From positions 72 through 64,071 of the forward strand of contig CALJJZ010000044.1 in assembly GCA_937973635.1 (NCBI GenBank): 64,000 bases of DNA. The letters are read 5' to 3'. Every line of letters begins with the position of its first letter. Positions within the stretch are counted from its first letter, which is position 1. Below the pieces are notes generated by a model. The model was not told the origin of the DNA and made no database searches. It saw nothing but the letters and a program-made list of their open reading frames with translations. Positions 23,286 through 39,712 of the stretch are shown here, one piece after another. The position numbers and the translations under genes were made by a program. The DNA is from an uncultured Bacillota bacterium (GTDB lineage Bacteria; Bacillota; Dethiobacteria; DTU022; UBA8154).

Positions 23286-24161
23286 ATGGGTATGGAGAAA
23301 GGGGAAAAAGAACAGAAACTGAGGGGAGCTGGCGGTATTAAGCTGGAAGCAAAGCATGATTTTGATGCCAATGGAGAGGGCGAGGAGAGGGACGGCCGCT
23401 ACGTCCAATCTGTGGAAAGGGTCCTCAATATTCTTGAAGCCATGGCCAGCGTAGGCGGCCCTATTACTGTAACTGAACTGGCAGACCGGGTTAAACTCAA
23501 GATCAGTACCGTGCACCGCCTCCTCTCAACTTTATTGCACCGCGGGTACGTAGAACAGGAGGACGACAATAAATACAGATTGGGCCTGAAACTCATGGAG
23601 ATAGGCAATGCTGTCCTCTATTATTCCGATATCCGCACCGTGGCGAGGCCATATCTGGAAGAGCTTATGGAGCGCTGCAATGAAACAGTTAACCTGGCCA
23701 TCCTGGATGATGTGGACGTAGTTTATATTGATCAGGTTGAGTCTAAGAACCTGATCATCGTTAAAATGCTGGCTCAGGTGGGAAACCGCGGCCCGGTTCA
23801 CTGCACTTCTTCCGGCAAAGTACTCTTGGCTTTCCTTCCGGAAGACAAAAGGGAAGAGGTAATTTCCAGATTGGATTTGGTTAAATATACCAATGAAACC
23901 ATTACCGACCCGGATAATCTGCGCAAAGAATTAAAGCGGGTACGGGAAGACGGTTATGCCGTGGACTGGGGAGAGCGGGAGGAACACGTCCGTTGTATCG
24001 CTGCGCCCATTCTTAACCACGAGGGGCGTGCCATTGCCAGCGTGAGTATATCCGGCCCCAGCAACCGCATTACCACTTATTATATGAAAAATGAACTGGT
24101 TGACTTAATCCGACAGACGGCACGAAAAATTTCCCACAAAATGGGTTATAACGGCGCTTAG
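23286..24161 (+). CDS. IclR-family transcriptional regulator
   Basis: N-terminal HTH (VQSVERVLNILEAMA...ITVTELADRVKLKISTVHRLLSTL) and C-terminal IclR effector domain (GAV fold motifs). Confidence 0.85.
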   Translation: MGMEKGEKEQKLRGAGGIKLEAKHDFDANGEGEERDGRYVQSVERVLNILEAMASVGGPITVTELADRVKLKISTVHRLLSTLLHRGYVEQEDDNKYRLGLKLMEIGNAVLYYSDIRTVARPYLEELMERCNETVNLAILDDVDVVYIDQVESKNLIIVKMLAQVGNRGPVHCTSSGKVLLAFLPEDKREEVISRLDLVKYTNETITDPDNLRKELKRVREDGYAVDWGEREEHVRCIAAPILNHEGRAIASVSISGPSNRITTYYMKNELVDLIRQTARKISHKMGYNGA

Positions 24162-24261: not shown

Positions 24262-24309
24262 TCATTTTCGCGATGAGGAAAACAATTTTAAAAATTGGGG
24301 GGTTCCGCA

Positions 24310-25775: not shown

Positions 25776-25837
25776 CAGAAAAATAGAAAACATTTTCGCA
25801 TTGCGGAATATATTCTTTTAGGGGAGAGGTGTCAGCC

Positions 25838-26626
25838 ATGACGCAAATGGTGAAAAACCATGTGCGGGAGAAACCGGTACAATCGGTGGAACGGTCGCTG
25901 CGCATCCTTGAACTCATGGCGGAACGGGGGCAGCCTTTAAGCCTCAGCGATATCAGCCACCACCTCAAACTGAAGATAAGTACGGCCCACCGCCTGTTAA
26001 AAACCTTAATCATCTGCGGCTTTGCCCAGCAGGATCCTTATTCCGGAAAATACCTCCTCGGCATCAAGAATTTTACCATCGGTTACAACGCCCTGTACAG
26101 CCTTGATATCCGCAACGTTGCCCGCCCTTTCCTGCATCAGCTCGTAGCCAGGTACCACGAAACGGCGAGCCTCGGTATTCTGGATCAGGGCGATCTGATC
26201 TATATTGACCAGGTTGAATCGGAAAAAATGGTAAAGATGCTCGCCCGCCTGGGCAGCCGCCTGCCGGCCCATTCCCATGCGGTGGGCAAAGTGCTCTTGT
26301 CGGCCCTGAGCGAAACGGAACTGGAGCTGTTCCTGAAAAACAAAAAGCTGGAAAAGTTTACAGAAAACACCATTAACTCGGCAGAGCAATTAAAAAAAGA
26401 GCTGTACACGATCCGCAAGCAGTCCTATGCTCTGGATCTGGAAGAGACGGAGCTGGGAATCCGCTGTGTGGCCGCCCCTGTCTTTAACCACCTGGGCCAT
26501 GCCACGGCTGCAGTGGGCATATCAGCGCCAAGCAGCCGCGTCAGCTCCACATATCTTAACGAGTTGGCCGGCGCAGTAAAGCAAGCAGGTAAGGAAATAT
26601 CCATGCGCCTAGGTTATAAAGGGTAG
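25838..26626 (+). CDS. IclR-family transcriptional regulator (second)
   Basis: HTH (VQSVERSLRILELMAERGQPLSLSDISHHLKLKISTAHRLLKTL) plus IclR effector domain. A paralog of the 23286 gene. Confidence 0.85.
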   Translation: MTQMVKNHVREKPVQSVERSLRILELMAERGQPLSLSDISHHLKLKISTAHRLLKTLIICGFAQQDPYSGKYLLGIKNFTIGYNALYSLDIRNVARPFLHQLVARYHETASLGILDQGDLIYIDQVESEKMVKMLARLGSRLPAHSHAVGKVLLSALSETELELFLKNKKLEKFTENTINSAEQLKKELYTIRKQSYALDLEETELGIRCVAAPVFNHLGHATAAVGISAPSSRVSSTYLNELAGAVKQAGKEISMRLGYKG

Positions 26627-26662: not shown

Positions 26663-27229
26663 TTGGCCAAGGTAGCGGAGGAGTTAAAAAATGGACAGAA
26701 AGAGACGGCCGGCCAGAACAACGTATCCCTGGTGGCTTTATTGCAGGAGGTGCAGGAACGGTACAATTATCTCCCGGAAGACGTCTTAAGGGAGCTGGCC
26801 CGCGAGAAGAACCTTTCTCTTATGGAAATGTACAGTGTGGCTACTTTTTATAAGAGTTTTAGCCTGCAGCCACGGGGCAAACATAAGGTTGCAACCTGTT
26901 CTGGCACGGCCTGCCATGTCCGGGGCAGTGAAAAGGTTACGGAAGAGCTCTCCCGGGTGCTCGGCATCAAGCCCGGAGAAACGTCGCAGGACGGCGCATA
27001 CTCTCTGGAAACCGTCAACTGCCTGGGGGCGTGCGCCCTTGCCCCCCTGGTAGTGGTGGACGGGGAGTACCACGGCAATATGACAGCTGCTAGGGCTGCT
27101 GCTCTGATTAAAGAACATTTAAAGAAAAGCAGGGGTTTGTCTGCAGCAGAACTGGAGCAGGATGTGGAAAAGAAAGCCTGGGAAGGTTGTTCCTGTGCCA
27201 TACTGCTTGCCGGAAATGATAAAAAGTAA
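26663..27229 (+). CDS. NuoE/HydC-like thioredoxin-fold [2Fe-2S] subunit (24-kDa type)
   Basis: The CxxxxC...CxxxC motifs (ATCSGTACHVRG...CLGACALAPLV) and overall similarity to NADH dehydrogenase subunit E. Confidence 0.85.
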   Translation: MAKVAEELKNGQKETAGQNNVSLVALLQEVQERYNYLPEDVLRELAREKNLSLMEMYSVATFYKSFSLQPRGKHKVATCSGTACHVRGSEKVTEELSRVLGIKPGETSQDGAYSLETVNCLGACALAPLVVVDGEYHGNMTAARAAALIKEHLKKSRGLSAAELEQDVEKKAWEGCSCAILLAGNDKK

Positions 27230-27253
27230 CGGATCTGCCGGAGGGAGAAGATT

Positions 27254-29119
27254 ATGGATGCTCTAAAAACCGGCTTGCGGTCGCTGCCGGAACTGTTTGA
27301 CTTGCAGCTGGAGTTAAAAAAGAAAAGGGAACAAAGGGAAAATTACCTCGCTGTCTGCGGCGACACGGGCTGTACTGCCTGGGGTTCGGAGCAGGTTAAA
27401 GATCTTTTTGCCCGGTGCCTGGAAGAAAAGGGGCTCAGTCAAAGTACGGGCCTAAAATTTACCGGCTGCCTGGGATTGTGTGAGTGCGGGCCCGTGGTCA
27501 TCGTCTTTCCCCAGGGTATATTTTACCAGAAGGTAAAAACGGAAGACATTGAAGAGATTGTGGAGCAGACGCTGCTGCAGGGCAAGGTCGTGGAGCGGCT
27601 CCTTTATCAGGACCCGCTGAGTGGGGCAAAAATTGTTCATGCGGAGGAGATACCTTTTTACCGTAAGCAGCAGCGGGTCTTGCTGGCAAACAACTGGAAA
27701 ATAGATCCTTCCAGTATTGAAGATTATCTGGCCCTAGGTGGCTATGGCGCCCTGGGTCGTGTCCTCGGTCAGATGAGCAGTGAACAGGTGATCGGGGAGA
27801 TAAAAGCTTCCCGCCTGCGCGGCAGGGGCGGCGCCGGTTTTCCGGCGGGGCTGAAATGGGAAGAGTGCAGCGGGATGCCGGCAAAGCAGAAGTATATCAT
27901 TTGTAATGCCGACGAGGGCGATCCCGGCGCTTTTATGGACCGCAGCCTCCTGGAGGGGAATCCCCATTCTGTCCTGGAGGGTTTGATCATCGGCGGTTTT
28001 GCCGTGGGCGCCAGCGAAGGCATTATCTATATCCGGGCCGAATACCCCACTGCCGTGCAGAAGGTAAGGTTGGCCATTGCCCAGGCGGAGGAGCTGGGCT
28101 TGCTGGGGGAAAACATCCTTGGCAGCCGCTTCAGTTTTAAGGTAAGTGTAAGCGTGGGAGCCGGGGCTTTCGTTTGCGGGGAGACTTCCGCCCTGGTGGA
28201 GTCGGTACATGGTCGTGTTGGTGAGCCCCGGCAAAAGCCCCCTCATCTGGCAGAGCGGGGTTATAACAACTGTCCCACGGTAATTAACAACGTAGAGACG
28301 CTGGCAAATATTCCTTACATTATAAATATGGGTGCAGAGGCTTACAGCCGGATTGGTTCGGGAAAATCAGGAGGCACGAAGATCTTTTCCCTGGTGGGTA
28401 AGGTCCATCACACGGGGCTGGTGGAGGTGCCCCTGGGTATGCCCCTGCGCAAGATTATTTTTGAGATCGGCGGGGGGATCAAAGGGGGAAAAGCGTTTAA
28501 AGCGGTTCAGACGGGAGGTCCGTCGGGGGGCTGCCTGCCCGCTTCTATGCTCGACCTGCCCACTGATTTCGATGAGCTGAACGCAGCAGGTTCGATGATG
28601 GGTTCGGGCGGGATGATCGTAATGGATGAGGAAACCTGTATGGTTGACCTGGCCCGTTATTTTTTAAAATTCCTGAATGATGAGTCCTGCGGCTGTTGTT
28701 TTACCTGCCGGGAAGGCCTCAGCCGTATGCTGGAGATGGTGGAGGCCATTACCAAGGGGCAAAGCAGCATGGCGGAGTTTGCCCTGCTTAAAGAACTGGC
28801 TGCCGTAGTCAGGGATTCGACCATGTGCGGCCTGGGCCAGACGGGCGCCAACCCGGTGCTTTCCACGATCCGCTACTTCACGGAAGAGTACCGCGCCCAT
28901 ATAGAGGAAAGGAGATGCCCTGCCGGCGTTTGCCGGGACCTGATCAGCTTCCATATTAATAGTGAACTGTGCAACGGTTGCGGCGCCTGCCGCCGCAAGT
29001 GCCCGGCAGGGGCGATTACAGGTGAGGCCAAGATGCCCCACTTCATCCGGGCGGAGCTCTGCACGAAATGCGGTATCTGCCTGGAAAGCTGTCCCATTCA
29101 GGCTGTAATTAAACTGTAA
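27254..29119 (+). CDS. NuoF/HydB-like NADH-binding FMN flavoprotein with an N-terminal [2Fe-2S] domain and C-terminal 2x[4Fe-4S] ferredoxin domain
   Basis: N-terminal thioredoxin-like cysteines, 51-kDa core (GRGGAGFPAGLKWE, SLVGKV, 4Fe-4S CGxCxxC), and C-terminal CNGCGACRRKCP...CTKCGICLESCP. Confidence 0.9.
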   Translation: MDALKTGLRSLPELFDLQLELKKKREQRENYLAVCGDTGCTAWGSEQVKDLFARCLEEKGLSQSTGLKFTGCLGLCECGPVVIVFPQGIFYQKVKTEDIEEIVEQTLLQGKVVERLLYQDPLSGAKIVHAEEIPFYRKQQRVLLANNWKIDPSSIEDYLALGGYGALGRVLGQMSSEQVIGEIKASRLRGRGGAGFPAGLKWEECSGMPAKQKYIICNADEGDPGAFMDRSLLEGNPHSVLEGLIIGGFAVGASEGIIYIRAEYPTAVQKVRLAIAQAEELGLLGENILGSRFSFKVSVSVGAGAFVCGETSALVESVHGRVGEPRQKPPHLAERGYNNCPTVINNVETLANIPYIINMGAEAYSRIGSGKSGGTKIFSLVGKVHHTGLVEVPLGMPLRKIIFEIGGGIKGGKAFKAVQTGGPSGGCLPASMLDLPTDFDELNAAGSMMGSGGMIVMDEETCMVDLARYFLKFLNDESCGCCFTCREGLSRMLEMVEAITKGQSSMAEFALLKELAAVVRDSTMCGLGQTGANPVLSTIRYFTEEYRAHIEERRCPAGVCRDLISFHINSELCNGCGACRRKCPAGAITGEAKMPHFIRAELCTKCGICLESCPIQAVIKL

Positions 29120-29122
29120 GGA

Positions 29123-29806
29123 GTGCTGCCGGTGGTTAATTTTAAATTGAACGGTCTGGAAGTGGCCGTGGAAAAAGGAACAACGCTTTTGGAGGCAGCC
29201 CGTTTTTATGGCATTGAAATCCCCACCCTCTGCTATGACGCGGGCCTGAGCCCTTACGGCGCCTGCCGCCTCTGCCTCGTGGAGGTGGGGGAGCCGGGAA
29301 AATCACGCCTGGTTACCTCCTGCACTTACCCGGCGCGGGAAGGGCTGCAGGTCAGGACACACTCCCAATGGGTGGTAAATACACGTAAGTTAATTATTGA
29401 GCTTTATTTGGCTACCTGTCCTTCTTCGAAAACCATTCAGGACCTGGCCTCTCGTTACCACGTAACCGGTGTCCGTTTTCGTCAAAAACACGAGGACTGT
29501 ATCCTTTGCGGGCTTTGTATCCGCTACTGCAGTGAACAGATGCAGGCCAAGGCCATTGGTTTTATCAACAGGGGGGAGAAGCGGCGTATCAGCACGCCCT
29601 TTGAACGTAAGGCGGAAGAATGCAGGTTTTGCGGAGGGTGCATGTATATCTGTCCGGCCTGCCAGGCCCGTTGCCAGGGGCCCGAGGAAAAGGAAGCCGT
29701 CTGCAACGCGTGTTTGAACCTCTCCCCGCCCTGCCTTGATCGTTTTAACGATGCCATGTGTTATCTGGATCCCTGCGTGGCCTGTGAGCAGGGGCGCAAG
29801 GAATGA
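29123..29806 (+). CDS. NuoG/HydA-N-terminal-like ferredoxin module ([2Fe-2S] plant-type + [4Fe-4S] clusters) without a catalytic domain
   Basis: Two-Fe-2S motif (CYDAGLSPYGACRLCLVEV...SC), His/Cys cluster, and two CxxCxxCxxxCP motifs. Only 227 aa. Confidence 0.7.
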   Translation: MLPVVNFKLNGLEVAVEKGTTLLEAARFYGIEIPTLCYDAGLSPYGACRLCLVEVGEPGKSRLVTSCTYPAREGLQVRTHSQWVVNTRKLIIELYLATCPSSKTIQDLASRYHVTGVRFRQKHEDCILCGLCIRYCSEQMQAKAIGFINRGEKRRISTPFERKAEECRFCGGCMYICPACQARCQGPEEKEAVCNACLNLSPPCLDRFNDAMCYLDPCVACEQGRKE

Positions 29807-29848
29807 CACTTTAAAATATTGAAAAGATTTTAGAAAGGAGTATTGACC

Positions 29849-31432
29849 ATGACTTATTCACGTTTAAACGCCTCTGCGGCTACCCTGACCAAAAACCGCA
29901 CGGAAGGTTCGATCAGCCCTTTCAGCGGTATGTGTGTAACCTGCGTGGACGGTTGTATCGGTATGTGCGAGATTGGCAAGTCAGCCTACCGCGGCCACGA
30001 AACCATCTACCCCCAGCCCTTTGGGTTGATTACCACTGCTTCGGAAAAAGTTTATCCCCTGGATTATTCCCATTTTACAATTCTGGGGACCGCTGTGGGC
30101 GCCCACGGTATCGAAGCGGACAGCGACAAGGCCATCTTTCCGGCGGTAAACCTTGAAACCAGGGTGGGGCAGGGTGCGGGGATCCGTGTCAAATTACCCT
30201 TTGTCATCTCGGGTATGGGTTCCACCGATGTGGCCGGCAACAACTGGGAGGGATTGGCCTCCGGCGCCGCCCTGGCCGGTGTGATCCTGACCATTGGTGA
30301 AAATGTATGCGGTATGGATACGAGTACAGTGATAAAGGACGGACGGGTAGTTAGCACCACCGACCTGGACCGGCGTGTAAAAATTTACCAGCAATGGCAG
30401 CGGGACGGCTATGGGGCCATCGTTGTCCAGGCCAACGTAGAAGATACGCGGCTGGGAGTCCAGGAGTACGCCATCAGCCAGCTTGGCGTGGAAGCCGTGG
30501 AATTGAAATGGGGCCAGGGTGCCAAGGATATTGGCGGCGAGGTAAAGATCCGGGACCTGGAAAAGGCCCAGCTGTTAAAGCAGAGGGGCTATGTGGTCCT
30601 GCCCGATCCTGAAAACCCTGCGGTGATTGCTGCTTTTAAACAGGGCTCTTTTAAGGAATTTGAGCGCCACTCCCGTGTTGGTATGGTGGAGCTGGAATCT
30701 TTCCTTAAGCGCGTGGAAGAACTGCGCCGGGCCGGAGCCAAATATATCTTCCTGAAGACGGGTGCCTACCGCCCGGCAGACCTGGCCAGGGCGATCAAAT
30801 TTGCCTCCCTGGCGCGCCTTGACCTGCTTACTGTGGACGGGGCGGGAGGCGGCACCGGCATGAGCCCCTGGCGCATGATGAACGAATGGGGCATCCCCTC
30901 CGTGGAGCTGCATTCCCTGCTCTACCGTTATGCGGTCAGGCTGGCGGAAAAGGGCGAATATGTGCCCGACCTGGCCCTGGCCGGAGGTTTTACCCTGGAG
31001 GATCAGGTCTATAAAGGACTTGCCCTTGGCGCTCCCTACGTCAAGCTCATCGGTATGGCCCGTTCCCCCCTGGCGGCGGCGATGGTGGGCAAAACAATCG
31101 GGCGTCGTATCGCCGAAAACCAGGTGCCCGTCTATGTGGAGCGCTTTGGCCATACGATCGAAGATATTTTTGTCACTGCCGCCTCCTTGAAAGAAGAACT
31201 GGGCGAAGAAACTTTCCGCCAGGTTTCGCCGGGGGCCCTTGGCGTTTACACCTATTTTGAGCGCCTGGCCCAGGGGTTGAAGCAGCTTATGTGTGGCAGC
31301 CGCAAATTTGCCCTTGCTTATCTTACCCGGGACGATATTGCGGCCCTCACCAGGGAAGCAGCGGAGGTCAGCGGGATTGACTATGTCATGGACGTGGACA
31401 GGGAAGAGGCGGAGAGGATTTTGGACCTCTAA
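29849..31432 (+). CDS. Stand-alone glutamate-synthase large-subunit domain-2-like FMN/Fe-S protein (YerD / archaeal GltB-2 type, Pfam Glu_synthase)
   Basis: N-terminal CxxCxxxCxxxC cluster, then the GltB FMN-domain fold (GxSxG-like GMGSTDV, LVISGHDGGTGAS-like LTVDGAGGGTGMSP). About 527 aa. No amidotransferase or GXGXG domain. Confidence 0.75.
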   Translation: MTYSRLNASAATLTKNRTEGSISPFSGMCVTCVDGCIGMCEIGKSAYRGHETIYPQPFGLITTASEKVYPLDYSHFTILGTAVGAHGIEADSDKAIFPAVNLETRVGQGAGIRVKLPFVISGMGSTDVAGNNWEGLASGAALAGVILTIGENVCGMDTSTVIKDGRVVSTTDLDRRVKIYQQWQRDGYGAIVVQANVEDTRLGVQEYAISQLGVEAVELKWGQGAKDIGGEVKIRDLEKAQLLKQRGYVVLPDPENPAVIAAFKQGSFKEFERHSRVGMVELESFLKRVEELRRAGAKYIFLKTGAYRPADLARAIKFASLARLDLLTVDGAGGGTGMSPWRMMNEWGIPSVELHSLLYRYAVRLAEKGEYVPDLALAGGFTLEDQVYKGLALGAPYVKLIGMARSPLAAAMVGKTIGRRIAENQVPVYVERFGHTIEDIFVTAASLKEELGEETFRQVSPGALGVYTYFERLAQGLKQLMCGSRKFALAYLTRDDIAALTREAAEVSGIDYVMDVDREEAERILDL

Positions 31433-31496
31433 GCTGAAATTCTTCCAGAGCAGGCTGGATGGCGGGCGAAAAAGAATACAATGACTGTGGCATACA

Positions 31497-31525
31497 TTGA
31501 CAGCAAAAGATTACTTTTGTTATAT
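31497..31525 (+). promoter_or_regulatory. Sigma-A promoter TTGACA-17-TTATAT upstream of the LarA-like gene
   Basis: TTGACA at 31497-31502 and TTATAT at 31520-31525. Confidence 0.5.
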
Positions 31526-31610
31526 TTCTAGTGACCTTATTATGGCCCTTTGCCAGGTCGGATCACCGCCTGCTCAGCAAAAATGAACTTTGTTTATCTT
31601 CCAGTTTATA

Positions 31611-31642
31611 AGCGCTGCCGCAGAGAGGGCAGCGCTTTTTTC
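31611..31642 (+). terminator. Rho-independent terminator (AGCGCTGCC-gcagagag-GGCAGCGCT + TTTTTT)
   Basis: Nine-bp GC stem plus a T6 run between the GltB-like and LarA-like genes. Confidence 0.7.
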
Positions 31643-31687
31643 TACATGCCGTTAAGTGGCCAAAATTGAGCGGAAAGGGGTGGCGCC

Positions 31688-32929
31688 ATGGAAGAATTAA
31701 AATTCAGGTTGCCGCAAAATGCTTGGCACGGCGATGCGGAGGTGGAAATCGCCCTGCCGGCAACATGGGAGGTCAAGCTGGCGGAAATTCCGGCCGACAG
31801 CCTGCCGGTCCTGGGGAAAGAGGAGATGGCTGCGCGCTTGCTTAAGCCCATCGCTTCTTCTCCCCTCTCTGACCTGGCCCGGGGCCGCCGGAAAGCTGTT
31901 ATTATCTTTGACGACCTCTCCAGGCCTACCATGATGGACGTGGTAGCGCCCATGATCGTGGCAGAACTTTTAAAGGGCGGTATGGAAGAAAACAGCATCT
32001 CTTTTGTGGCTGCCCTGGGTGCGCACGGCGCCCACACGCTGCTCGACTTTACCAAAAAGCTGGGCGCGGAGATTGTGGGGCGTTTCCCTGTTTATAACCA
32101 CAATCCCTACGAGAATTGCTCCTACGTGGGGAAAACTTCTTCCGGCCTCCCTGTATATATCAACGACGAAGTGCTCAGTGCCGATTTAAAGATAGGTATT
32201 GGCAGCATTCTGCCCCATGCCTTTAACGGCTTTGGCGGCGGCGGGAAAATTGTTTTTCCCGGGGTGGCGGGGATGGAGTCTATCTATCTTAATCACAGCA
32301 AAGTCCTGGCTGACTTAAAAGAAAGGAACGTAGGTTTTACCGGCAATATGGGTGATATGGCGAACAGCCGCATGAAAGACGATATTGAAGAAATTGTACG
32401 TATGATTAATTTTAATTTTAAAATTGACATACTGCCCAACAGCAAAAGGGAGGCTGTGGAAATGGTGGCCGGCGATCCCATACTGGCGCATTATAAAGGC
32501 GTGGAGATGGCCTCCCGGCTTTATTTAACCGAGTTCCACGGCGATGCGGACATTGTCATCGCCAATGCCAATGCCAAGGCCAATGAGTCGTTGATCGCCC
32601 TCCTGCAGGGAGCGGCTTCCTTAAAGGAAGAGGGCGGCGATCTGGTGCTGATCGTAGATTTTCCCGCGGGACAGGTGGTGCACTACCTGCTGGGGCAGTG
32701 TGGCGAAAAAAGGGGTGGCAGGCTCTGGCCCGGGGAAGTCGCCTTTCCTCCCCGTATCCAGCGCGGCATCCTCTTCACCAGCAACCCCGGCCAGCGTTTC
32801 GGCCTTTGCCATAGCCTGGTGGAATGTTGCCGCTGGGATGATGTGCGTACTCTCTTGCAGGAGAAATACGGCGCTAAGACCAAAGCGGTAATTTATAAAG
32901 ACGCTACCATGCAATTTTTTCGCCGCTAA
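31688..32929 (+). CDS. LarA-family (DUF2088) nickel-pincer-nucleotide-dependent alpha-hydroxy-acid racemase/epimerase-like protein
   Basis: Approximately 413 aa. KAVIIFDDLSRPT resembles the LarA ...SDxTRP motif, ALGAHGAHT the ATGTHR motif, and PHAFNGFGGGGK the H..GfsGG.K motif. Confidence 0.5.
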   Translation: MEELKFRLPQNAWHGDAEVEIALPATWEVKLAEIPADSLPVLGKEEMAARLLKPIASSPLSDLARGRRKAVIIFDDLSRPTMMDVVAPMIVAELLKGGMEENSISFVAALGAHGAHTLLDFTKKLGAEIVGRFPVYNHNPYENCSYVGKTSSGLPVYINDEVLSADLKIGIGSILPHAFNGFGGGGKIVFPGVAGMESIYLNHSKVLADLKERNVGFTGNMGDMANSRMKDDIEEIVRMINFNFKIDILPNSKREAVEMVAGDPILAHYKGVEMASRLYLTEFHGDADIVIANANAKANESLIALLQGAASLKEEGGDLVLIVDFPAGQVVHYLLGQCGEKRGGRLWPGEVAFPPRIQRGILFTSNPGQRFGLCHSLVECCRWDDVRTLLQEKYGAKTKAVIYKDATMQFFRR

Positions 32930-33101
32930 GGCAGGAAAGGTAAAAAAAATGTCAAATATAAATTATAAATGTATATTATTTCGTAATAATTAATATAGCA
33001 GTGCAAGGGGGTGAATAAGGATAATATATGAGACAATAGTAACGGGAAAGTTGTACGTGGGGGAATTTCCAGAAAAATTTATTTATAACAGGAGGTCAAC
33101 G

Positions 33102-34187
33102 ATGAAAAAGAAGGTTACGGTATTTTTACTTCTGGGGGCTATGCTGGCGCTGGCACTGGCCGGATGCGCCCAGCAGGCGGCGCCTGCTCCCGCTACACCG
33201 GGGGCTCCTGCTGCTGCCGCTCCGGAAAAGGTCTTTAACTGGCGAGCCCAGGGCATTTATACCCCTGGAGACCCGGGGCTGGAGATCCAGCAAGCTTTTG
33301 TGGACAGGGTCAAGGAGCTTTCCGGCGGTAGGCTTAATATCACGCTGCATCCCATTGGCGCCATCGTGGGACCTTTTGAGACCTTTGATGCGGTGGCCAC
33401 AGGGGTGCTGGAAGTAGGCATGAAAACCCCTATGTGGTGGGGCGGTAAAGAACCTGTATGCAACCTTTTGACCAGTCTCCCGGGCAGCTTTACCCATGCC
33501 TACCAGTTGGATGCCTGGTACTGGGAGCACGGCGGCATTGATATTGCCCGGGAAGCCTACGGCAGGCATGGTATCTATTTTGTTGGGCCGGCTATCTTCG
33601 GTGTTCCGCCTATTGGAGCCGAAGTGGTTCATTCCCGTGTGCCTATCCGCAGTATCGATGATTACAGGGGGCTGAAGGTCCGCAGCGGCGGCGCTGCTGC
33701 CAAATGGTTTGAGGGCCTGGGAGCCTCCATCGTCACTCTCCCCGGACCGGAGATCTACCCATCTCTGGAAAAGGGAGTTGTAGATGCTGCCGAATGGGTT
33801 TCTCCCAACTCCAACTATGCGTTGGGCCTGCATGAGGCTGCTCCCTATGTAATTATGCCCGGGCTACACACACCGCTGATGGCTTCTGAGGTTACAGTAA
33901 ATATGGAGGCCTGGAACTCGCTCCCCGATGACCTGAAGGCCATTATGGAGGTCGCCACCAAGGAGCTTTCCGTAAGAAAAGCTCAGAGGTTTGAAAACCT
34001 CGACCACTACTACCTTGATAAGATGAGGGAATACGGGGTGGAAGTAATCGAGTGGACGCCGCAGGAAATTGCCAGGGCGGCCCAGTATTCTATGACTCTG
34101 TTTGAAGGCTTTGCCACCGATGAACTTTCCAGGCGGGCCTTGGATTCCCAGTTAAATTATCTGCGGACGATCGGCGTTATCCAATAG
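33102..34187 (+). CDS. TRAP transporter substrate-binding lipoprotein (DctP family)
   Basis: Lipobox ALAGCAQ, DctP-fold motifs, and RBS AGGAGG 7 nt before the ATG. Confidence 0.85.
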   Translation: MKKKVTVFLLLGAMLALALAGCAQQAAPAPATPGAPAAAAPEKVFNWRAQGIYTPGDPGLEIQQAFVDRVKELSGGRLNITLHPIGAIVGPFETFDAVATGVLEVGMKTPMWWGGKEPVCNLLTSLPGSFTHAYQLDAWYWEHGGIDIAREAYGRHGIYFVGPAIFGVPPIGAEVVHSRVPIRSIDDYRGLKVRSGGAAAKWFEGLGASIVTLPGPEIYPSLEKGVVDAAEWVSPNSNYALGLHEAAPYVIMPGLHTPLMASEVTVNMEAWNSLPDDLKAIMEVATKELSVRKAQRFENLDHYYLDKMREYGVEVIEWTPQEIARAAQYSMTLFEGFATDELSRRALDSQLNYLRTIGVIQ

Positions 34188-34227
34188 CCTAAGTGCTGAA
34201 TAGTCTTAAGGACTGGAGGGCATCTCC

Positions 34228-34731
34228 TTGAAACCTCTGCTGACTGTAATAGACGCTATTTCCGAATACACAGGTAGGCTTTTTGCCTACCTGTGTATTC
34301 CAGTCATTGCCATCATCATGATCGAAGTAATAGGGAGATATTTCTTTACTCACCCCTTTATCTGGAGCCATGAATCTATGACTTTTACAAGCGCGGGTAT
34401 CTATCTTTTGGGTGGGGCTTATATTTTAAAAGAACGGGGACATATCAGCGTGGATCTGATTTATCGCTATCTGCCGGTCCGGGCAAAGGCGATTATGGAT
34501 CTTGTGGTGTCAGTTTTCTTTTTCATTTATATTTATGTCCTGTTGAAGGTAGGGATGAACTACGCTCTTACCTCGGTGCGCATCCTGGAGAAGAGCGGCA
34601 CGCCCTGGAATCCTCCCATCTATCCGGTAAAGCTTGCCATTGCTATTGCCACTCTCCTTATTTTCCTTGCCGGAATAGCTAATTTTATCCGTGACCTGAA
34701 GGTCGCCATTACAGGGAGGGAAGAGCTATGA
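34228..34731 (+). CDS. TRAP transporter small permease (DctQ)
   Basis: Four-TM protein of about 167 aa. Its stop overlaps the dctM start. Confidence 0.75.
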   Translation: MKPLLTVIDAISEYTGRLFAYLCIPVIAIIMIEVIGRYFFTHPFIWSHESMTFTSAGIYLLGGAYILKERGHISVDLIYRYLPVRAKAIMDLVVSVFFFIYIYVLLKVGMNYALTSVRILEKSGTPWNPPIYPVKLAIAIATLLIFLAGIANFIRDLKVAITGREEL

Positions 34732-36038
34732 GCATTGAACTTATTACCTTGTTTATGTTTGGCGGCCTCTTTCTTCTCCTGCTTTTGAATGTGCCTATCG
34801 CCTTTGCCACCGGTTCCATCGCTGTCATCAGTGCCTACCTTTTCTGGAGCCCCAAGGCGGTGAACCTCTTTCCCACTTCTGTTTACACTATGGTCACAAA
34901 TTATATCTTTGTAGCTGTCCCCATGTTTATCTTCATGGGTTCTGTCCTGGAGCGCTCCGGCATTACAGACTATCTTTACGAAGCAGTTTACCGCTGGGTT
35001 GGTTCTCTGCGGGGCAGCCTGGCCATGGCCACTGTGCTGGCGAGCATTATTATGAGCGCCATGGTGGGGGTGATTGGGGCTATTATTGTTAGCATGGGGT
35101 TAATTGCTCTTCCCTCTATGCTTAAACGGGGTTACGATAAAGGTATTGCCATGGGCAGCATTATGGCCGGCGGCGCCCTGGGTGTGCTTATACCGCCCAG
35201 CATTATGCTCATCATGTACGCTATGTGGGCGGGCCTCTCCATCAGGAAGATTTTTCTGGGGGCGATCATGCCCGGCTTGCTGCTGGGAGGGCTCTTCCTC
35301 GTCTATATTGCTGTAAGGTGCTATATTCAGCCCCACCTGGGGCCTGCATTGCCCAAAGAAGAGCGGATCCCCTTTAAAGAGAAGCTGAAATACTTAAAGG
35401 CGCTGATCCTGCCTGTTGCCCTTATCGTTTTTGTGCTAGGTTCCATCCTTACCGGTATTGCTGCCCCCACAGAAGCCAGCGGCATCGGGGCTTTTGGCGC
35501 CCTAGTATGCGCCGCCGTTTACCGCCGGCTGAACTGGGATCTTGTCAAAAATGCCTGTCTGAGCACCATCAGGCTTTCGGCAATGGTCATGTGGATCGGT
35601 TTTGGCGCTGTTATGTTTATCAGCACCTATAACGCCCTAGGAGGTGTCCAGTTCGTCCAGAACCTCATCCTTGCCCTACCGGTGCAGCCATGGGTCCTTT
35701 TGGTGGGGATGATGGCCATTGTCATTGCTCTGGGAATGATTATCGAATGGGTGGGGATTATTATGCTGGTGGTGCCGATTTTCCTCCCTATTGTAGCGGC
35801 CCTTGGCTTCGATCCCCTCTGGTTTGGGGTCCTTGTCTGTGTTAACCTGCAGATGGACGTGCTGACCCCGCCCTTTGGCTATGCCCTTTTTTACATGAAG
35901 GGTGTGGCGCCAAAGGAAGTTACTACGGCCGATATCTACCGGGCCTCCATTCCTTTTGCCCTTTTGCAGCTGACAGGCCTTATTTTATGCATGATCTTTC
36001 CCCAGATCATCCTCTGGTTGCCCAATTTGATGTACTGA
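34728..36038 (+). CDS. TRAP transporter large permease (DctM)
   Basis: Twelve-TM profile. DctM family length is 436 aa. Confidence 0.85.
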   Translation: MSIELITLFMFGGLFLLLLLNVPIAFATGSIAVISAYLFWSPKAVNLFPTSVYTMVTNYIFVAVPMFIFMGSVLERSGITDYLYEAVYRWVGSLRGSLAMATVLASIIMSAMVGVIGAIIVSMGLIALPSMLKRGYDKGIAMGSIMAGGALGVLIPPSIMLIMYAMWAGLSIRKIFLGAIMPGLLLGGLFLVYIAVRCYIQPHLGPALPKEERIPFKEKLKYLKALILPVALIVFVLGSILTGIAAPTEASGIGAFGALVCAAVYRRLNWDLVKNACLSTIRLSAMVMWIGFGAVMFISTYNALGGVQFVQNLILALPVQPWVLLVGMMAIVIALGMIIEWVGIIMLVVPIFLPIVAALGFDPLWFGVLVCVNLQMDVLTPPFGYALFYMKGVAPKEVTTADIYRASIPFALLQLTGLILCMIFPQIILWLPNLMY

Positions 36039-36193
36039 TCTGCGGGGAAAACAGACCCGGCAGCGCTGCAGGCATGGGGAGCAGCCGGAAAGCAAGGCCG
36101 GGATATGGGGGATAAAGGCGTATCAAAGGGGATGCGCCTTTATATATTTCCCCGGTTGTTGGTTAGATAAAGAAAATGGCAGGAGGAATACAG

Positions 36194-37453
36194 ATGCGCT
36201 GTGAAATTATTGCCGTAGGTACAGAACTGCTCATGGGGCAGATCGTCAACACCAACGGGGCCGAAATAGCCCGGGAACTTGCCGGCCTGGGGGTCGGCGT
36301 TTATTACCAGACTATGGTGGGGGACAACGGCGAGCGGCTGGCCGAGGTTTTCTCCATAGCCCTCAAGCGGGCGGATCTGGTTATTTTATGCGGGGGCCTT
36401 GGCCCTACGAACGACGATCTTACGCGGGAAACGGTGGCCCATGTTCTGGGGTTGCCGCTGGAGCAGAACGAGTTCTGGGTGGAAAAGCTGCACGAGTTCT
36501 TTGGCCGCTTCGGCCGTCCTGTTATCCCCTCGAACCTGCGCCAGGCCATGCTGCCGCAGGGAGCTAAGCTTTTGCCCAATGACCGCGGCACTGCCCCGGG
36601 CATTTATCTGGAGCATGGACAGAATATTATTGTGCTCTTGCCGGGCCCTCCGGGGGAGCTGCTTCCCATGTTCCGTGCCCAGGTACTCCCCCTGCTCCGT
36701 GAACGCCTGGCGCAGGAGGACAACCTGGCTGTGCTTCAATCGAAGATCTTGCGCATTAGCGGCCTGGGCGAATCGGTTGTGGCCGAACGCCTCAAGGACG
36801 TGCTGGAGAAACAGCATAACCCCACCATTGCGCCCCTGGCCAGGGGAGGTCTGGAGGTACACCTGCGCCTTACGGCCCGTGCGGCAAGCCCGGCAGAAGC
36901 GGCCAGGCTGCTGGAGGAGAAGGCAGAAGAGATCCGCTGTATCCTCGGCGATTATATTTATGGCGAAGACGCGGAAGGGTTGGAGTACAGCGTGGCCCGC
37001 CTGCTCTGGCAAAAGAAACTGACCATCGCCGTAGCCGAATCCTGCAGCGGCGGCCTGCTCAGCCACCGCCTTACTGCTGTCCCTGGCAGCTCCCTTTATC
37101 TGATGGCCGGGTTGGTGACCTACAGCAATGAGGCCAAAATAGATCTGCTTGGCGTTGATCCGCAGCTGATCGCCCGGCATGGGGCCGTGAGCAGGGAAGT
37201 GGCTTTGCAGATGGCTACCGGGGCACGCCGTACAGGCAAGGCCCATATCGGCATGGGCATTACTGGGATAGCAGGCCCTGACGGAGGCACGGCGGAGAAG
37301 CCGGTAGGCCTTACCTATATCGCCCTTGCAGCCGACGGCAGGGAATATTGCCGTGAGCTGAATTTCTGGGGCAGCCGCGGGGAAATTAAGGAACGGGCCG
37401 CCCAAACGGCCCTGCACCTGCTGCGCCTTTTCCTGCTGGGGAAATTGTCGTAA
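36194..37453 (+). CDS. cinA: CinA (competence/damage-inducible protein; MocF + PncC NMN-amidohydrolase domains)
   Basis: MRCEIIAVGTELLMGQIVNTN N-terminus and C-terminal CinA domain (ESCSGGLLS...ITGIAGP). Confidence 0.85.
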   Translation: MRCEIIAVGTELLMGQIVNTNGAEIARELAGLGVGVYYQTMVGDNGERLAEVFSIALKRADLVILCGGLGPTNDDLTRETVAHVLGLPLEQNEFWVEKLHEFFGRFGRPVIPSNLRQAMLPQGAKLLPNDRGTAPGIYLEHGQNIIVLLPGPPGELLPMFRAQVLPLLRERLAQEDNLAVLQSKILRISGLGESVVAERLKDVLEKQHNPTIAPLARGGLEVHLRLTARAASPAEAARLLEEKAEEIRCILGDYIYGEDAEGLEYSVARLLWQKKLTIAVAESCSGGLLSHRLTAVPGSSLYLMAGLVTYSNEAKIDLLGVDPQLIARHGAVSREVALQMATGARRTGKAHIGMGITGIAGPDGGTAEKPVGLTYIALAADGREYCRELNFWGSRGEIKERAAQTALHLLRLFLLGKLS

Positions 37454-37618
37454 AAAAATAACAGGCCAGGCAGGAAAAAGGGCGGCGGGGCAGAATTTAT
37501 AATATGGCTGTGCCACTGTGTGGCCGTTGGAGGAGCAGGACCCCCTCAGGGGGTTTTAATAGAGTTATGCTGGGCAGCTAGCGGTTTCTTGTAGGAGGTA
37601 AATTTTTAGACAAGAGGA

Positions 37619-39712
37619 GTGAAAGGCATGACAAAGAGTAACGGCCAGTTGAAAGAAGGAGCCGGGGGGTTGCCTCCATGCCAGGTAGCCTGTCCCATCC
37701 ACCAGGAGGTAAGGGAATACCTGCGCTTTATTGCCACCGGTGATTTTGATCGTTCCCTGGAGGTAATTAAGCGGACCAGTCCCCTTTCTGCAGTGTGCGG
37801 CACGATCTGCGCCCACCACTGTGAGGACGAATGTCGCCGTCAGAATGTGGATGAGCCCCTCTCTATCCGCGGCTTAAAGAGGTCTGCCGTGGATTTTGGC
37901 AGCGCTGATTTTCCGGCACCTGTTCCCGTAGATGAAGGGAAAAAAGTGGCCATTATCGGTTCCGGCCCCGCGGGCATGACTGCCGCCTTTGACCTGGCTC
38001 TGCAGGGCTGCCGCGTCACCATTTTTGAGCGGGAGAAGGATTTTGGAGGCGCCCCGCGCAACTTTATTCCTCTTTACCGCCTTCCCGATGAAACCATTGA
38101 TCTGGATGTGGAGAATTTAAAGAAGCTCGGCGTGGAGTTTAGAGGCGGCGTGGAGTTTGGCAGCGATATTATGCCCGACGACCTGCGCAAAGAGGGTTAT
38201 AAGGCGATCCTGATCGCCGTGGGCCTGACTGCAAGCCGCGGCCTGCCGCTGCCGGGGGCGGACCATCAGGATGTATTGATGGCCCTTAATTTCCTCCGTG
38301 CCTCCAAAAGGGAGAATTTCCGCCTGGACGGAAGGGAAGTAATTGTTATTGGCGGCGGCAACGTGGCCATGGACGTAGCTCGTTCGGCGGTGCGTTGCGG
38401 CGCCGCCAAGGTGAGGCTGGCCTGCCTGGAGTCTGAAGCAGAGATGCCGGCTTTCTCCTGGGAGATTGAGGAGGCCAAAGAAGAAGGGGTAGAGATGAAC
38501 TGCTCCTGGGGGCCCACGGCGATCCGCGTAGAAAACGGCCGCATTACCGGCCTGGAGATGCATGAATGTACCTCTGTCTTTACCGACGGGCGCTTCAACC
38601 CCTGTTTTAACCCCGAGAACAAGAGCTTTATCCCCGGTGATACAGTCATCTTTGCCATCGGCCAGGCGCCTGACCTGAAAGCGGTAAGCAATGCCGGTAT
38701 CCCCCTTAACGAGCGTGGCCTCATGGAGTTTGACCCCTTCACTATGAAGACGCCGATACCAGACATTTTTGCCTGCGGCGAGATAGTAAACGGTCCAAGC
38801 ACCGCTGTTAAGGCTATGGCCCATGCCCGCGTGGCGGCCATGGCTATTTGCCATTATCTGGAAGGAAAGCCCTTTGTCGCCTCCATGGTGGAAGAGCAGG
38901 AAGCACTGCCCAAGCTGGCCGACGATGTGGCTGTGAAAGTAAAGAAGATCGCCCGGGCGGAGATCCCCCTCCTTACCCCGGAGGAGCGCTCTGCTAACTT
39001 TAAGCCGGTAGAAACGGGCTATACTATGGCTATGGCCGTCTGGGAGAGCCGCCGCTGTCTTGGCTGTGCCGCCGGTGCCGTACGCGTGGTGGAAAAATGC
39101 GCCGACTGCCTGACCTGCTTGCGTACCTGCCCCTACAACGTGCCTGTGGTCAGCGAGATGGGCGATCTCATGATCCGCGACCACCAGTGCCAGGCCTGCG
39201 GGCTTTGCCTTACGGTCTGCCCCAACCTTGCCATAGATTTCCGTACCCCGTATATTACGGAAGCGGAAGAGCGGCTGGAAGCTGTTGCCGGCGAGCTGGT
39301 GGCTTCACGCAATGGGAAGCCCCTGATTATGGTCCTTTCCTGCGCCCTCGGTGCTTACGCCCTGCCCGAGTTCCGCCAGGATTTCATGCAGCAGAAGCCG
39401 GCCAATGTGGGGGTAGTCCGTTTTCCCTGTATCTCCAAGATCGATACCACCCATATCCTCAAGGCTTTCCAGCTTGGTGTTGACAGCGTGGTGGTAGCGG
39501 GCTGCGCTTCTGACGAAGCCGATGACTGTCCTTTCCAGAAGACCATGTACTGGGCGGAGCAGCGCGTCAGCCGCGCAAAATCCCTGTTACAGGAAGCGGG
39601 TCTGGAAGGGGAACGGGTGGCCCTTTTAAGCTTTACCCCGGAACAGGTGGCGAACTTTAAAGAGGCCATTGCCGATACCCTGGTGCAGCTGGAAGGACTG
39701 GGACGGCGCTAG
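37619..39712 (+). CDS. GltD-like NAD(P)H:FAD oxidoreductase (N-terminal 2x[4Fe-4S]) fused to a 2x[4Fe-4S] ferredoxin and an MvhD/FlpD-like domain
   Basis: CQVACPIHQEV...CGTICAHHCEDECRR (GltD N-terminus), two dinucleotide-binding motifs (IIGSGPAGMTAA, VIGGGNVAMD), CPYNVP...CQACGLCLTVCP, then the MvhD pattern (VVRFPCISKID...VVAGCASDE..CPF). Confidence 0.8.
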   Translation: MKGMTKSNGQLKEGAGGLPPCQVACPIHQEVREYLRFIATGDFDRSLEVIKRTSPLSAVCGTICAHHCEDECRRQNVDEPLSIRGLKRSAVDFGSADFPAPVPVDEGKKVAIIGSGPAGMTAAFDLALQGCRVTIFEREKDFGGAPRNFIPLYRLPDETIDLDVENLKKLGVEFRGGVEFGSDIMPDDLRKEGYKAILIAVGLTASRGLPLPGADHQDVLMALNFLRASKRENFRLDGREVIVIGGGNVAMDVARSAVRCGAAKVRLACLESEAEMPAFSWEIEEAKEEGVEMNCSWGPTAIRVENGRITGLEMHECTSVFTDGRFNPCFNPENKSFIPGDTVIFAIGQAPDLKAVSNAGIPLNERGLMEFDPFTMKTPIPDIFACGEIVNGPSTAVKAMAHARVAAMAICHYLEGKPFVASMVEEQEALPKLADDVAVKVKKIARAEIPLLTPEERSANFKPVETGYTMAMAVWESRRCLGCAAGAVRVVEKCADCLTCLRTCPYNVPVVSEMGDLMIRDHQCQACGLCLTVCPNLAIDFRTPYITEAEERLEAVAGELVASRNGKPLIMVLSCALGAYALPEFRQDFMQQKPANVGVVRFPCISKIDTTHILKAFQLGVDSVVVAGCASDEADDCPFQKTMYWAEQRVSRAKSLLQEAGLEGERVALLSFTPEQVANFKEAIADTLVQLEGLGRR

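Follow-up and report, generated by a model that had tools for sequence, protein, structure and literature searches.

The window, a 64,000-nucleotide stretch of DNA from an uncultured Bacillota bacterium, carries a gene for a LarA homologue with dctPQM, the genes of a TRAP transporter, downstream on the same strand. Coordinates and Pfam matches confirmed this originally predicted gene order, and the LarA homologue and dctPQM form a real four-gene unit. The features of the locus are listed below.

31497 to 31526, + strand: sigma-70-type promoter, TTGACA-17-TTATAT, 11 of 12 matches
31610 to 31643, + strand: terminator-like leader hairpin, AAGCGCTGCC-N8-GGCAGCGCTT followed by a U-run; stem of 10 bp with 7 GC pairs
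31673 to 31683, + strand: ribosome-binding site of the LarA homologue (GAAAGGGGTGG), 4 nt 5' of the ATG, read from the sequence
31688 to 32929, + strand: LarA homologue, 413 aa; Lar_N/DUF2088 Pfam match, E 4e-50
32930 to 33101, + strand: AT-rich spacer between the LarA homologue and dctP, containing the dctP ribosome-binding site as well as a weak promoter-like site
32949 to 32977: the weak promoter-like site in this spacer, ATGTCA-17-TATATT, 9 of 12 matches
33102 to 34187, + strand: dctP, TRAP substrate-binding protein of the TTHA0766/TakP type, 361 aa, with signal peptide; PF03480
34228 to 34731, + strand: dctQ, TRAP small membrane subunit, 167 aa; PF04290, E 1e-25
34728 to 36038, + strand: dctM, TRAP large membrane subunit, 436 aa; PF06808, E 1e-81
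36113 to 36150, + strand: stable hairpin with a U-rich tail 3' of dctM; dG -26.5 kcal/mol, z -5.0

The end of dctQ and the start of dctM share 4 nt, and DctM scored above the cut-off of TIGR00786 (322 versus 268 bits). The true start of dctP is the ATG at 33102, which has an AGGAGG ribosome-binding site and was preferred over a TTG at 33051, which was rejected. GC content drops across dctPQM.

The promoter was the top match in the 9 kb scanned (29000 to 38000), is equally readable as TTGACA-18-TATATT with an extended -10 TG, and gives a predicted transcription start at approximately 31533. Its sequence, CATTGACA...TGTTATATTT, is kept 5' of the LarA orthologue in the relative L085, and the near-consensus promoter first proposed for this gene was upheld. 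A terminator preceding that promoter had also been proposed; both elements are present, but their order is reversed. The hairpin itself (31610 to 31637; dG -20 kcal/mol, z -3.3) lies 3' of the promoter, inside the 5' UTR and 50 nt before the LarA start codon, where it may have a regulatory role. Both stem arms are identical in the relatives L083 and L085, in which the T-run is not kept. The hairpin sequence is also common elsewhere in metagenomes, and there it never adjoins a LarA homologue. No terminator was predicted in the spacer between the enzyme gene and dctP (32930 to 33101), and the hairpin 3' of dctM, which none of 200 shuffled sequences equaled in folding, is probably the terminator of the unit. 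One transcription unit would then run from the promoter at 31497 through the leader hairpin, the LarA homologue, and dctPQM to the hairpin at approximately 36113 to 36150.

The predicted LarA-superfamily identity of the enzyme was borne out by the Lar_N match, the LarA fold, and a complete set of nickel-pincer-cofactor residues; no Pfam family besides Lar_N matched the protein. The AlphaFold2 model (pLDDT 90.5) matched LarA of L. plantarum (5HUQ) and I. pallida (9EIA) over the full length (TM, 0.80 to 0.83), and the two-domain fold is also common to the malate racemase Mar2 (6D6Z; TM, ∼0.6). Sequence identity to LarA and Mar2 is 20 to 26%, and the sequence-profile alignment ends at about residue 330. 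Lys187, His203, His113, His177, and Arg79 of the window enzyme are equivalent to L. plantarum Lys184, His200, His108, His174, and Arg75, and Asp76 aligns with LarA Asp72; LarA and Mar2 both share with it the Lys that tethers the cofactor, the His that binds Ni, the Arg, and the two catalytic His residues. All six residues (D76, R79, H113, H177, K187, and H203) were invariant in 48 family members with 41 to 86% identity. The window enzyme has the LarA fold with the full cofactor and catalytic residue set. An alignment check against Lys184/His108/His156/His200 had been suggested: the Lys and His equivalents are present, but His156 is not canonical, the canonical LarA set being His108, His174, Lys184, and His200.

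By sequence, the window enzyme falls within Group 23, which is labeled "unknown function", in the sub-branch of Deba_0774 and AF0049. Deba_0774 (Desulfarculus baarsii) and AF0049 (Archaeoglobus fulgidus) are ∼40% identical to it over the full length, share the motifs NAxAKANE and GQxxHY, and show the same pattern in the Desguin table, with D-R-H-H ... K-H kept and Y294/Q295/K298 replaced; the window protein differs in coming from an uncultured Bacillota lineage. Among the GTDB genomes, its nearest relative shows 63% identity. The sole assayed Group 23 protein, LarAH23 (Isop_0004), was inactive in seven assays (Desguin 2020, Sci Rep, PMC7583248); unlike the window enzyme, it retains the Gln and Lys. 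Because LarAH23 belongs to another sub-branch, the Deba_0774/AF0049 sub-branch is without an assayed member in the literature examined.

As the original prediction stated, larB, larC, and larE were not found among the window open reading frames (all those of at least ∼180 aa were compared with Pfam and/or NCBIfam), and the only PP-loop proteins in the window were TtcA-like (46040 to 46780) and NadE (46826 to 47578). A weak motif search likewise found none of the three within 10 kb of any of the 85 homologous loci, and no gene family is listed as associated with Group 23 (Desguin 2020 Table S1, PMC7583248). The lack of lar biosynthesis genes near any family member examined, that empty table entry, and the loss of Tyr294, which is reported to be important for nickel-pincer nucleotide (NPN) retention in I. 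pallida LarA (bioRxiv 10.1101/2024.11.28.625916), would fit a protein of LarA fold that works without the cofactor, or one with non-racemase hydride chemistry. We consider this very improbable: across 48 diverse members there is no exception to the Lys that tethers the cofactor, the His that ligates Ni, the Arg/Asp pair, or either catalytic His, a constancy that is hard to explain without the nickel-pincer cofactor, and in other LarA groups the lar genes are often unlinked from the LarA homologues.

The substrate pocket differs from those of LarA and Mar2. In characterized LarAs, Tyr294, Gln295, and Lys298 hold the substrate carboxylate and 2-OH (bioRxiv 10.1101/2024.11.28.625916). This Tyr294-Gln295-x-x-Lys298 motif is missing from the window enzyme and its sub-branch: the Tyr position was lost through a 4-residue deletion, and the Gln and Lys were replaced by small or aliphatic residues. 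The helical segment with the specificity positions Trp358/Thr359 has become a Gly/Pro-rich loop in the window enzyme. Seven family-specific pocket residues (N293, K297, E300, H332, Y333, W383, and D405) are invariant in both phyla, Bacillota and the one represented by Dehalococcoidia, and the pocket of the sub-branch is rebuilt, with invariant residues of its own. The window enzyme also fell below the cut-off of every curated LarA-family NCBIfam model, scoring 212 bits against the LarAH6 malate racemase model (cut-off, 500; only residues 43 to 295 covered) and 164 bits against the LarA lactate racemase model (cut-off, 460). No curated model thus identifies it as a malate, 2-hydroxyglutarate, or lactate racemase.

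The transporter had been described as dicarboxylate type, a description that the binding protein contradicts. The best solved relative of DctP is the Ca2+/L-lactate-binding protein TTHA0766 of Thermus thermophilus (2ZZV; full length, E 1e-65), with 122 of 335 residues identical (36%), followed by the pyruvate/ketoacid binders 4pet, 5cm6, 7ug8, and TakP, the pyruvate/2-oxoacid receptor of R. sphaeroides (2HZK; full length, E 1e-27). The window protein shares the DctP-family fold class with TTHA0766 and TakP, and the Arg of K-x-R-x-GG is kept in the alignment. With this clustering and a score of 60 bits against the dctP model TIGR00787 (cut-off, 175), a C4-dicarboxylate DctP identity was rejected. 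The binding protein belongs to the lactate/pyruvate-type receptors, with 36% identity to TTHA0766 leaving ligand specificity unfixed; since ligand-contact residues are not confidently mappable, a different small acid of the 2-hydroxy or 2-oxo class may be bound instead. The TTHA0766-based biosensor eLACCO1 has an apparent Kd of 4 μM for L-lactate and 120 μM for D-lactate and is ∼460-fold less sensitive to pyruvate (bioRxiv 10.1101/2021.03.05.434048).

These results bear on the proposal that a hydroxy-dicarboxylate, malate or 2-hydroxyglutarate, is imported and racemized and feeds the neighboring glutamate dehydrogenase and redox genes. The top NCBIfam and PDB sequence matches of the enzyme are the malate racemases LarAH6 and Mar2; a glutamate dehydrogenase gene and an IclR - NuoE/F-like - GltB-FMN operon lie upstream, and a 2-hydroxyacyl-CoA-dehydratase-family pair with its activase lies 20 kb downstream in the window. 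However, the LarAH6 match is partial and far below its cut-off, the malate/2-hydroxyglutarate racemase signature residues lie in helices swapped for a loop in this family, and the binding protein groups with lactate/pyruvate receptors, so that binding protein, score, and pocket all speak against these substrates. The gdh/Nuo-like synteny is limited to this lineage, namely, the window and L085, the sole close relative with a readable upstream region, and in L085 a terminator and promoter separate these genes from the enzyme gene, which argues against the proposed feeding of adjacent genes. We regard the hydroxy-dicarboxylate proposal as improbable.

The pairing of enzyme and transporter is not a one-off adjacency. 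Orthologous TRAP genes adjoin the enzyme in five related Bacillota loci (L004, L010, L011, L013, and L016), in a clade with enzymes 56 to 63% identical, and are placed upstream, downstream, or on the opposite strand; DctM is ∼80% and DctP 60 to 82% identical. Dehalococcoidia loci, e.g., L034, L064, L078, and L081, also have the pairing, and in L034 and L081 the binding protein once more matches structures of the TTHA0766/TakP type. In the two nearest relatives, which are 86% and 79% identical, however, the enzyme gene is directly followed by cinA, with no TRAP genes at the locus. This arrangement, the AT-rich spacer with its own weak promoter-like site, and the lower GC content across dctPQM could indicate that dctPQM is unrelated cargo inserted between the enzyme gene and cinA. 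With three arrangements across five other loci, a DctM conserved beyond the enzyme, and same-type TRAP genes in another phylum, as would be expected if enzyme and transporter are functionally coupled and two lineages lost the latter, we find the insertion of unrelated cargo quite improbable. LarA-TRAP adjacency was noted before for the uncharacterized Group 22, which shows 25 to 30% association with genes for TRAP transporters and IclR regulators (Desguin 2020 Table S1, PMC7583248), and this type of arrangement was therefore already known; Group 22 is a separate phylogenetic group and, unlike the window enzyme, has sugar-kinase and dehydratase neighbors.

Other neighbors fit 2-hydroxy-acid catabolism: a GlcD-like FAD D-2-hydroxyacid dehydrogenase gene is directly 3' of the enzyme in L011, and a GlcC/LldR/PdhR-like FadR-family regulator gene is directly 5' in L003. 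Many Dehalococcoidia loci instead have a split SAF (99 aa) and UxaA/GarD-type dehydratase (399 aa) pair immediately 5' of the enzyme, an architecture that we take to be that of the sulfolactate sulfo-lyase SuyAB, along with a D-2-hydroxyacid dehydrogenase, an enolase-superfamily acid-sugar dehydratase, a phosphotriesterase-like lactonase, and a second paralogue. A putative IlvD/Edd-like dehydratase, read from sequence, is upstream in L014. Together with the invariant pocket residues, these neighbors would suit a C2-epimerase or racemase for sugar acids, 2,3-dihydroxy acids, or 3-sulfolactate that serves the adjacent dehydratase/lyase, with the window copy and its transporter handling the same acid. 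Dehydratase genes of this type are absent from the window and the Bacillota relatives, the binding proteins match small-ligand (C2-C4) rather than sugar-acid TRAP receptors, and our literature search found no paper tying LarA enzymes to sulfolactate; we judge this explanation rather unlikely for the window. The UxaA/GarD-type and enolase-type acid-sugar dehydratase neighbors in Dehalococcoidia point to larger, polyhydroxylated, or other acids for some family members at least.

The best explanation is uptake and stereo-inversion of a small 2-hydroxy monocarboxylate as the putative substrate, to which we give about even chances; the leading candidates are lactate and its close C3-C4 analogues. 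Counting against it are the pocket motif loss, the failed curated models, the lack of larB, larC, and larE in the window, the lack of TRAP genes at the loci of the two closest relatives, the modest identity of the binding protein to TTHA0766 (36%), and the acid-sugar dehydratase neighbors in Dehalococcoidia. The high-affinity TRAP transporter would import a small 2-hydroxy (or 2-oxo) monocarboxylic acid, and the cytoplasmic LarA-superfamily enzyme would invert its C2 stereocenter through an NPN hydride shuttle, with Lys187 tethering the cofactor, His203 ligating nickel, and His113 and His177 providing acid/base catalysis. The LarA-family branch concerned is large and already catalogued (Desguin 2020), and the window enzyme adds a member to it. 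For the organism, either imported enantiomer would become usable by stereospecific dehydrogenases encoded elsewhere.

The LarA homologue (413 aa; residue numbers of the enzyme refer to this protein) and its neighbors were laid out in the window as follows.

23286-24161, + strand: IclR-family regulator
24295-25587, + strand: glutamate dehydrogenase
25829-26626, + strand: second IclR regulator
26663-31432, + strand: NuoE-like, NuoF-like and HoxU-like trio, and a 529-aa protein with only the glutamate synthase FMN domain
Spacer of 255 nt between the FMN-domain gene and the LarA homologue
31610-31643 (stem-loop 31610-31637), + strand: leader hairpin with a 10-bp GC-rich stem and then a U-run
31688-32929, + strand: LarA homologue
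33102-36038, + strand: dctP, dctQ and dctM
36113-36150, + strand: hairpin with a U-rich tail, 3' of dctM
36176-37453 (start probably ATG 36194), + strand: full-length CinA with MoCF-like, KH and PncC NMN-deamidase domains
37619-39712, + strand: GltD-like flavoprotein fused to an MvhD/FlpD domain

The coordinates originally predicted for the whole enzyme-transporter unit (31688-36038) were right except for the start of dctP: an AGGAGG site precedes ATG 33102, which gives 361 aa; the same call was obtained on two identical public contigs. The dctQ and dctM genes overlap by 4 nt, and the hairpin 3' of dctM (ΔG, -26.5 kcal/mol; z, -5.0) probably closes the unit. A 435-aa ORF that is antisense to, and nearly coextensive with, the glutamate dehydrogenase gene (24262-25569, - strand) is almost certainly a shadow ORF and not a gene. 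An IS200/IS605-type Y1 transposase gene is located at 12496-13164.

The cofactor nickel-pincer nucleotide (NPN) is used chiefly, so far as is known, by LarA enzymes. Pfam matched the window protein in the N-terminal LarA domain only (Lar_N, PF09861; E = 4.4e-50, 170 bits against a cutoff of 23.3, residues 15 to 209). A model predicted by AlphaFold2 from 48 homologues (pLDDT, 90.5; pTM, 0.91) was compared with solved structures by Foldseek and matched the L. plantarum and I. pallida LarA structures 8EZF, 8EZH and 9EIA over its full length (TM, 0.80 to 0.83; ∼430 columns), while the first non-LarA match that followed had an E value above 0.01. The predicted structure is that of a complete two-domain LarA-fold enzyme. 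Six residues (D76, R79, H113, H177, K187 and H203) were invariant in the 48 homologues, which are 41 to 86% identical to the window enzyme, and profile alignment to 5HUQ placed them at D72, R75, H108, H174, K184 and H200, the cofactor-anchoring, nickel-binding and acid/base residues of LarA (JBC 2024, PMC11770544). The L. plantarum and window enzymes have in common the tethering Lys (K184/K187), the nickel-ligand His (H200/H203) and the catalytic His residues (H108/H113 and H174/H177). Absence of the catalytic Lys and His residues had been named beforehand as grounds for rejecting the original reading; all of them were present and invariant.

The position of the enzyme within the superfamily was also examined. 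Every curated LarA-family model in NCBIfam scored below its cutoff, with matches spanning residues ∼14 to 295 only: LarAH6 malate racemase (NF052593) gave 212.5 bits against 500, LarAH5 malate racemase (NF052595) gave 165.2 against 462, LarAH10 gave 185 against 540, and lactate racemase LarA (NF033504) gave 163.6 against 460. When the supplementary dataset of Desguin et al. 2020 (PMC7583248) was searched by motif, Deba_0774 of Desulfarculus baarsii was recovered, and AF0049 of Archaeoglobus fulgidus was found in the surrounding listing. Both are entered as "Group 23, unknown function," have ∼40% full-length identity to the window enzyme, and carry the same motifs. Together with the NCBIfam scores, the matches to Group 23 entries ruled out assignment to the Group 5/6 malate racemases or to Group 22. 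Group 23 is heterogeneous; its sole purified and assayed member, LarAH23 (Isop_0004), was negative in seven assays, belongs to another sub-branch, and keeps the Gln and Lys of the substrate site. The sub-branch of Deba_0774 and AF0049 is thus already catalogued, and the published Group 23 assay covers a different one. Each of the best 120 clusters (90% identity) listed by a protein search shared 40% identity or more with the enzyme, and all but one were full length. Within a genome collection, 225 of 270 candidate stretches encoded a relative, mostly in Dehalococcoidia, Bacillota and Desulfobacterota metagenome-assembled genomes. The sub-branch is large and widespread, extending over Dehalococcoidia, Bacillota, Desulfobacterota and Archaeoglobus.

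In I. pallida LarA, an Arg, Gln295, Lys298 and two His residues hold the carboxylate of the bound D-lactate, and a His and Tyr294 hold its 2-hydroxyl (bioRxiv 10.1101/2024.11.28.625916). Equivalents of the C-domain residues Tyr294, Gln295 and Lys298 were not found in the alignment, where a 4-residue deletion falls at the Tyr, the Gln is replaced by Ser or Ala, and the Lys is replaced by Ala or Leu. These three residues mark the characterized LarA groups and not the whole superfamily. HMM alignments to all solved LarA enzymes ended near residue 330, and the "specificity" residues Trp358 and Thr359 sit in a helical segment that is replaced in the AlphaFold2 model by a lower-confidence Gly/Pro-rich loop. 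The sub-branch has invariants of its own: N293, K297 and E300 (NAxAKANE), G328, H332 and Y333 (GQxxHY), W383, and D405.

The transporter genes encode TRAP P, Q and M components together (PF03480, PF04290 and PF06808), and DctM exceeded the cutoff of the dctM model TIGR00786 (322 bits; cutoff, 268). The binding protein scored only 60.2 bits with the dctP model TIGR00787, below the cutoff of 175. Among solved structures, Thermus thermophilus TTHA0766 was by far its closest relative, matched over the full length (E = 1e-65) with 122 of 335 residues identical; pyruvate and 2-oxoacid receptors, including TakP, came next (review, PMC5812351). TTHA0766 is a Ca2+-dependent L-lactate receptor, and the TTHA0766-based biosensor eLACCO1 has an apparent Kd of 4 µM for L-lactate, with binding of D-lactate 30-fold weaker and sensitivity to pyruvate ∼460-fold lower (bioRxiv 10.1101/2021.03.05.434048). 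Of the "TRAP dicarboxylate-type" transporter originally predicted, the TRAP assignment stood and the dicarboxylate assignment did not: judged by its sequence, the binding protein falls outside the C4-dicarboxylate DctP subfamily.

To survey how often the enzyme and transporter genes occur together, the ORFs of 85 homologous loci were clustered. In a Bacillota clade with enzymes 56 to 63% identical to that of the window, orthologous TRAP genes lay directly beside the enzyme gene at five loci (L004, L010, L011, L013 and L016). The orthologues were ∼80% (DctM), 60 to 82% (DctP) and ∼60% (DctQ) identical, and their position varied from downstream to upstream to convergent. Several Dehalococcoidia loci also carried enzyme and TRAP genes, and the binding proteins of two of them (L034 and L081) matched the TTHA0766/TakP cluster. 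At L083 and L085, the two closest relatives (enzymes 86% and 79% identical), cinA directly follows the enzyme gene, with no transporter. Chance insertion of the transporter beside the enzyme is unlikely; the simplest reading is that enzyme and transporter have long been functionally linked and that the two nearest lineages lost or relocated the linkage.

A promoter of its own had been predicted for the LarA homologue, and this was borne out as a sequence match at 31497-31526 (TTGACA and a TG-extended TATATT; 11 of 12 matches, the best within the 9 kb scanned), which is also kept 5' of the L085 orthologue. The terminator predicted to lie upstream of this promoter lies instead downstream of it: ∼80 nt separate the leader hairpin (ΔG, -20 kcal/mol; z, -3.3) from the predicted transcription start on its 5' side, and 50 nt separate it from the ATG on its 3' side. 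Its stem arms are identical in the window, L083 (152-188) and L085 (9913-9941), while the loops and flanking bases vary, only the window has the T-run, and the spacers of the three align poorly apart from the 10-bp stem. Purifying selection acting on a signal at the protein or RNA level could explain the shared stem, as could a mere generic terminator stem. The exact 20-base hairpin sequence has at least 120 occurrences in unrelated metagenome contigs, and the T-run is present in 71 of the 120 listed, none of which lies beside a LarA homologue; therefore, the hairpin is probably a generic terminator-type stem. A riboswitch or attenuator in the 155-nt leader was considered and found little support, given the probably generic stem sequence, the lack of any Rfam match at E values up to 1, and whole-leader folding that was not significant (z, -1.3 and -0.9); no convincing anti-terminator helix was found in the leader. 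The upstream operon has its own terminator in L085 and none in the window, where the leader hairpin may also end that operon, and the hairpin may attenuate transcription in this strain.

The imported acid had also been proposed to feed into the adjacent redox and gdh genes. For gdh and the NuoE/F-HoxU-GltB(FMN) operon 5' of the enzyme, no such link was upheld, as the synteny is limited to the window and L085, and the L085 operon ends at its terminator ahead of the enzyme promoter. The electron-input module with the 529-aa FMN protein (26663-31432) and the GltD-MvhD/FlpD fusion (37619-39712) are conserved in L085, and the 529-aa protein had no match in NCBIfam. The module, the fusion, gdh and the two IclR regulators together resemble a 2-oxoglutarate/glutamate redox system of an unusual kind, linked to NAD(P)H. 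Genes for two HGD-D family subunits and an acyl-CoA dehydratase activase (55815-59133) lie 20 kb away, with the housekeeping genes tig, clpX and lon between them and the LarA homologue. Their products scored much lower than the curated models of double-cubane reductase, benzoyl-CoA reductase and 2-hydroxyisocaproyl-CoA dehydratase require, and represent an unassigned member of the 2-hydroxyacyl-CoA dehydratase/BCR family.

Neighbors elsewhere in the family were examined at the homologous loci. A GlcD-like FAD-dependent D-2-hydroxyacid dehydrogenase is directly downstream of the enzyme in L011, and the same ORF cluster is directly upstream in L045 and L060. In L003, a GlcC/LldR/PdhR-like FadR-family regulator is directly upstream, and an apparent LIV-type ABC uptake system, read by eye, is downstream. 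At 10 Dehalococcoidia loci (L018, L021, L023, L025, L035, L055, L058, L061, L067 and L068), a split pair of SAF (∼99 aa) and UxaA/GarD-type dehydratase (∼399 aa) genes is always directly 5' of the LarA homologue, which lies at about position 10001. Alongside the pair in Dehalococcoidia are genes for a D-2-hydroxyacid dehydrogenase, an acid-sugar dehydratase of the enolase superfamily, a phosphotriesterase-like protein and a flavoprotein, and often for a second, convergent LarA paralogue. The sulfolactate sulfo-lyase SuyAB has this same split architecture, and the pair may possibly function in organosulfonate or sugar-acid catabolism. The family neighbors are compatible with 2-hydroxy-acid catabolism, and the substrate need not be uniform across the family.

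No larB, larC or larE was found by searches of the ORFs in the 64-kb window, in agreement with the original prediction. A PP-loop protein (46040-46780) was considered as a LarE candidate and rejected, being TtcA-like with NadE as its neighbor; this TtcA-like tRNA thiolase and NadE (NAD synthase) together occupy 46040-47578. A weak search with short motifs turned up no lar-like gene up to 10 kb away from any family member at the 85 homologous loci, and for Group 23 no associated gene family is given in the published table (Desguin et al. 2020, PMC7583248). The cinA gene, 3' of the unit in the window, directly follows the LarA homologue in L083 (1542-2816, after a 61-nt spacer) and L085 (11502-12758). 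The nickel-pincer cofactor is built from NaAD, whose precursor, nicotinate mononucleotide, is the product of NMN deamidase. NadE and CinA place NAD-pathway genes no more than 15 kb from the LarA homologue, the cofactor of which would be made from NaAD; the CinA-LarA adjacency is confined to this lineage and may be coincidental.

The best-supported mechanism is that lactate or a similar small 2-hydroxy monocarboxylate would be taken up by the TRAP system and inverted at C2 by the LarA homologue in an NPN-dependent reaction. We place only middling confidence in this sequence-based mechanism because the substrate-holding residues are noncanonical. The malate or 2-hydroxyglutarate substrate first proposed was unsupported. 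The curated NCBIfam models, those for malate racemase included, were all missed by a wide interval. A rather improbable alternative is that the sub-branch, which has kept the nickel-pincer machinery and replaced the substrate-holding half of the active site, binds its substrate in a novel mode and acts on a new substrate class, such as 3-sulfolactate or another noncanonical 2-hydroxy acid, which would be handed to the SuyAB/UxaA-type lyases in Dehalococcoidia and imported by the lactate-type TRAP system in the window. A literature search found no paper linking sulfolactate with the nickel-pincer cofactor.

Taken as a whole, the original observation was largely correct. In its interpretation, the family and cofactor residues stood, and the transporter type, likely substrate, redox link and order of promoter and terminator were wrong or without support. 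For the window, the outcome is mainly a corrected annotation, with no dicarboxylate system and no demonstrable tie to the glutamate and redox genes. About half of the LarA superfamily is still without a predicted function (survey, JBC 2024), and this gene belongs to a large branch in which the canonical substrate-binding residues are gone and every cofactor residue is invariant. With the recurrent lactate/pyruvate-type TRAP pairing, a ligand screen of the soluble binding protein would yield a short list of candidate substrates. The window enzyme adds to a known, catalogued LarA branch, and its main value is as a tractable entry to that branch.
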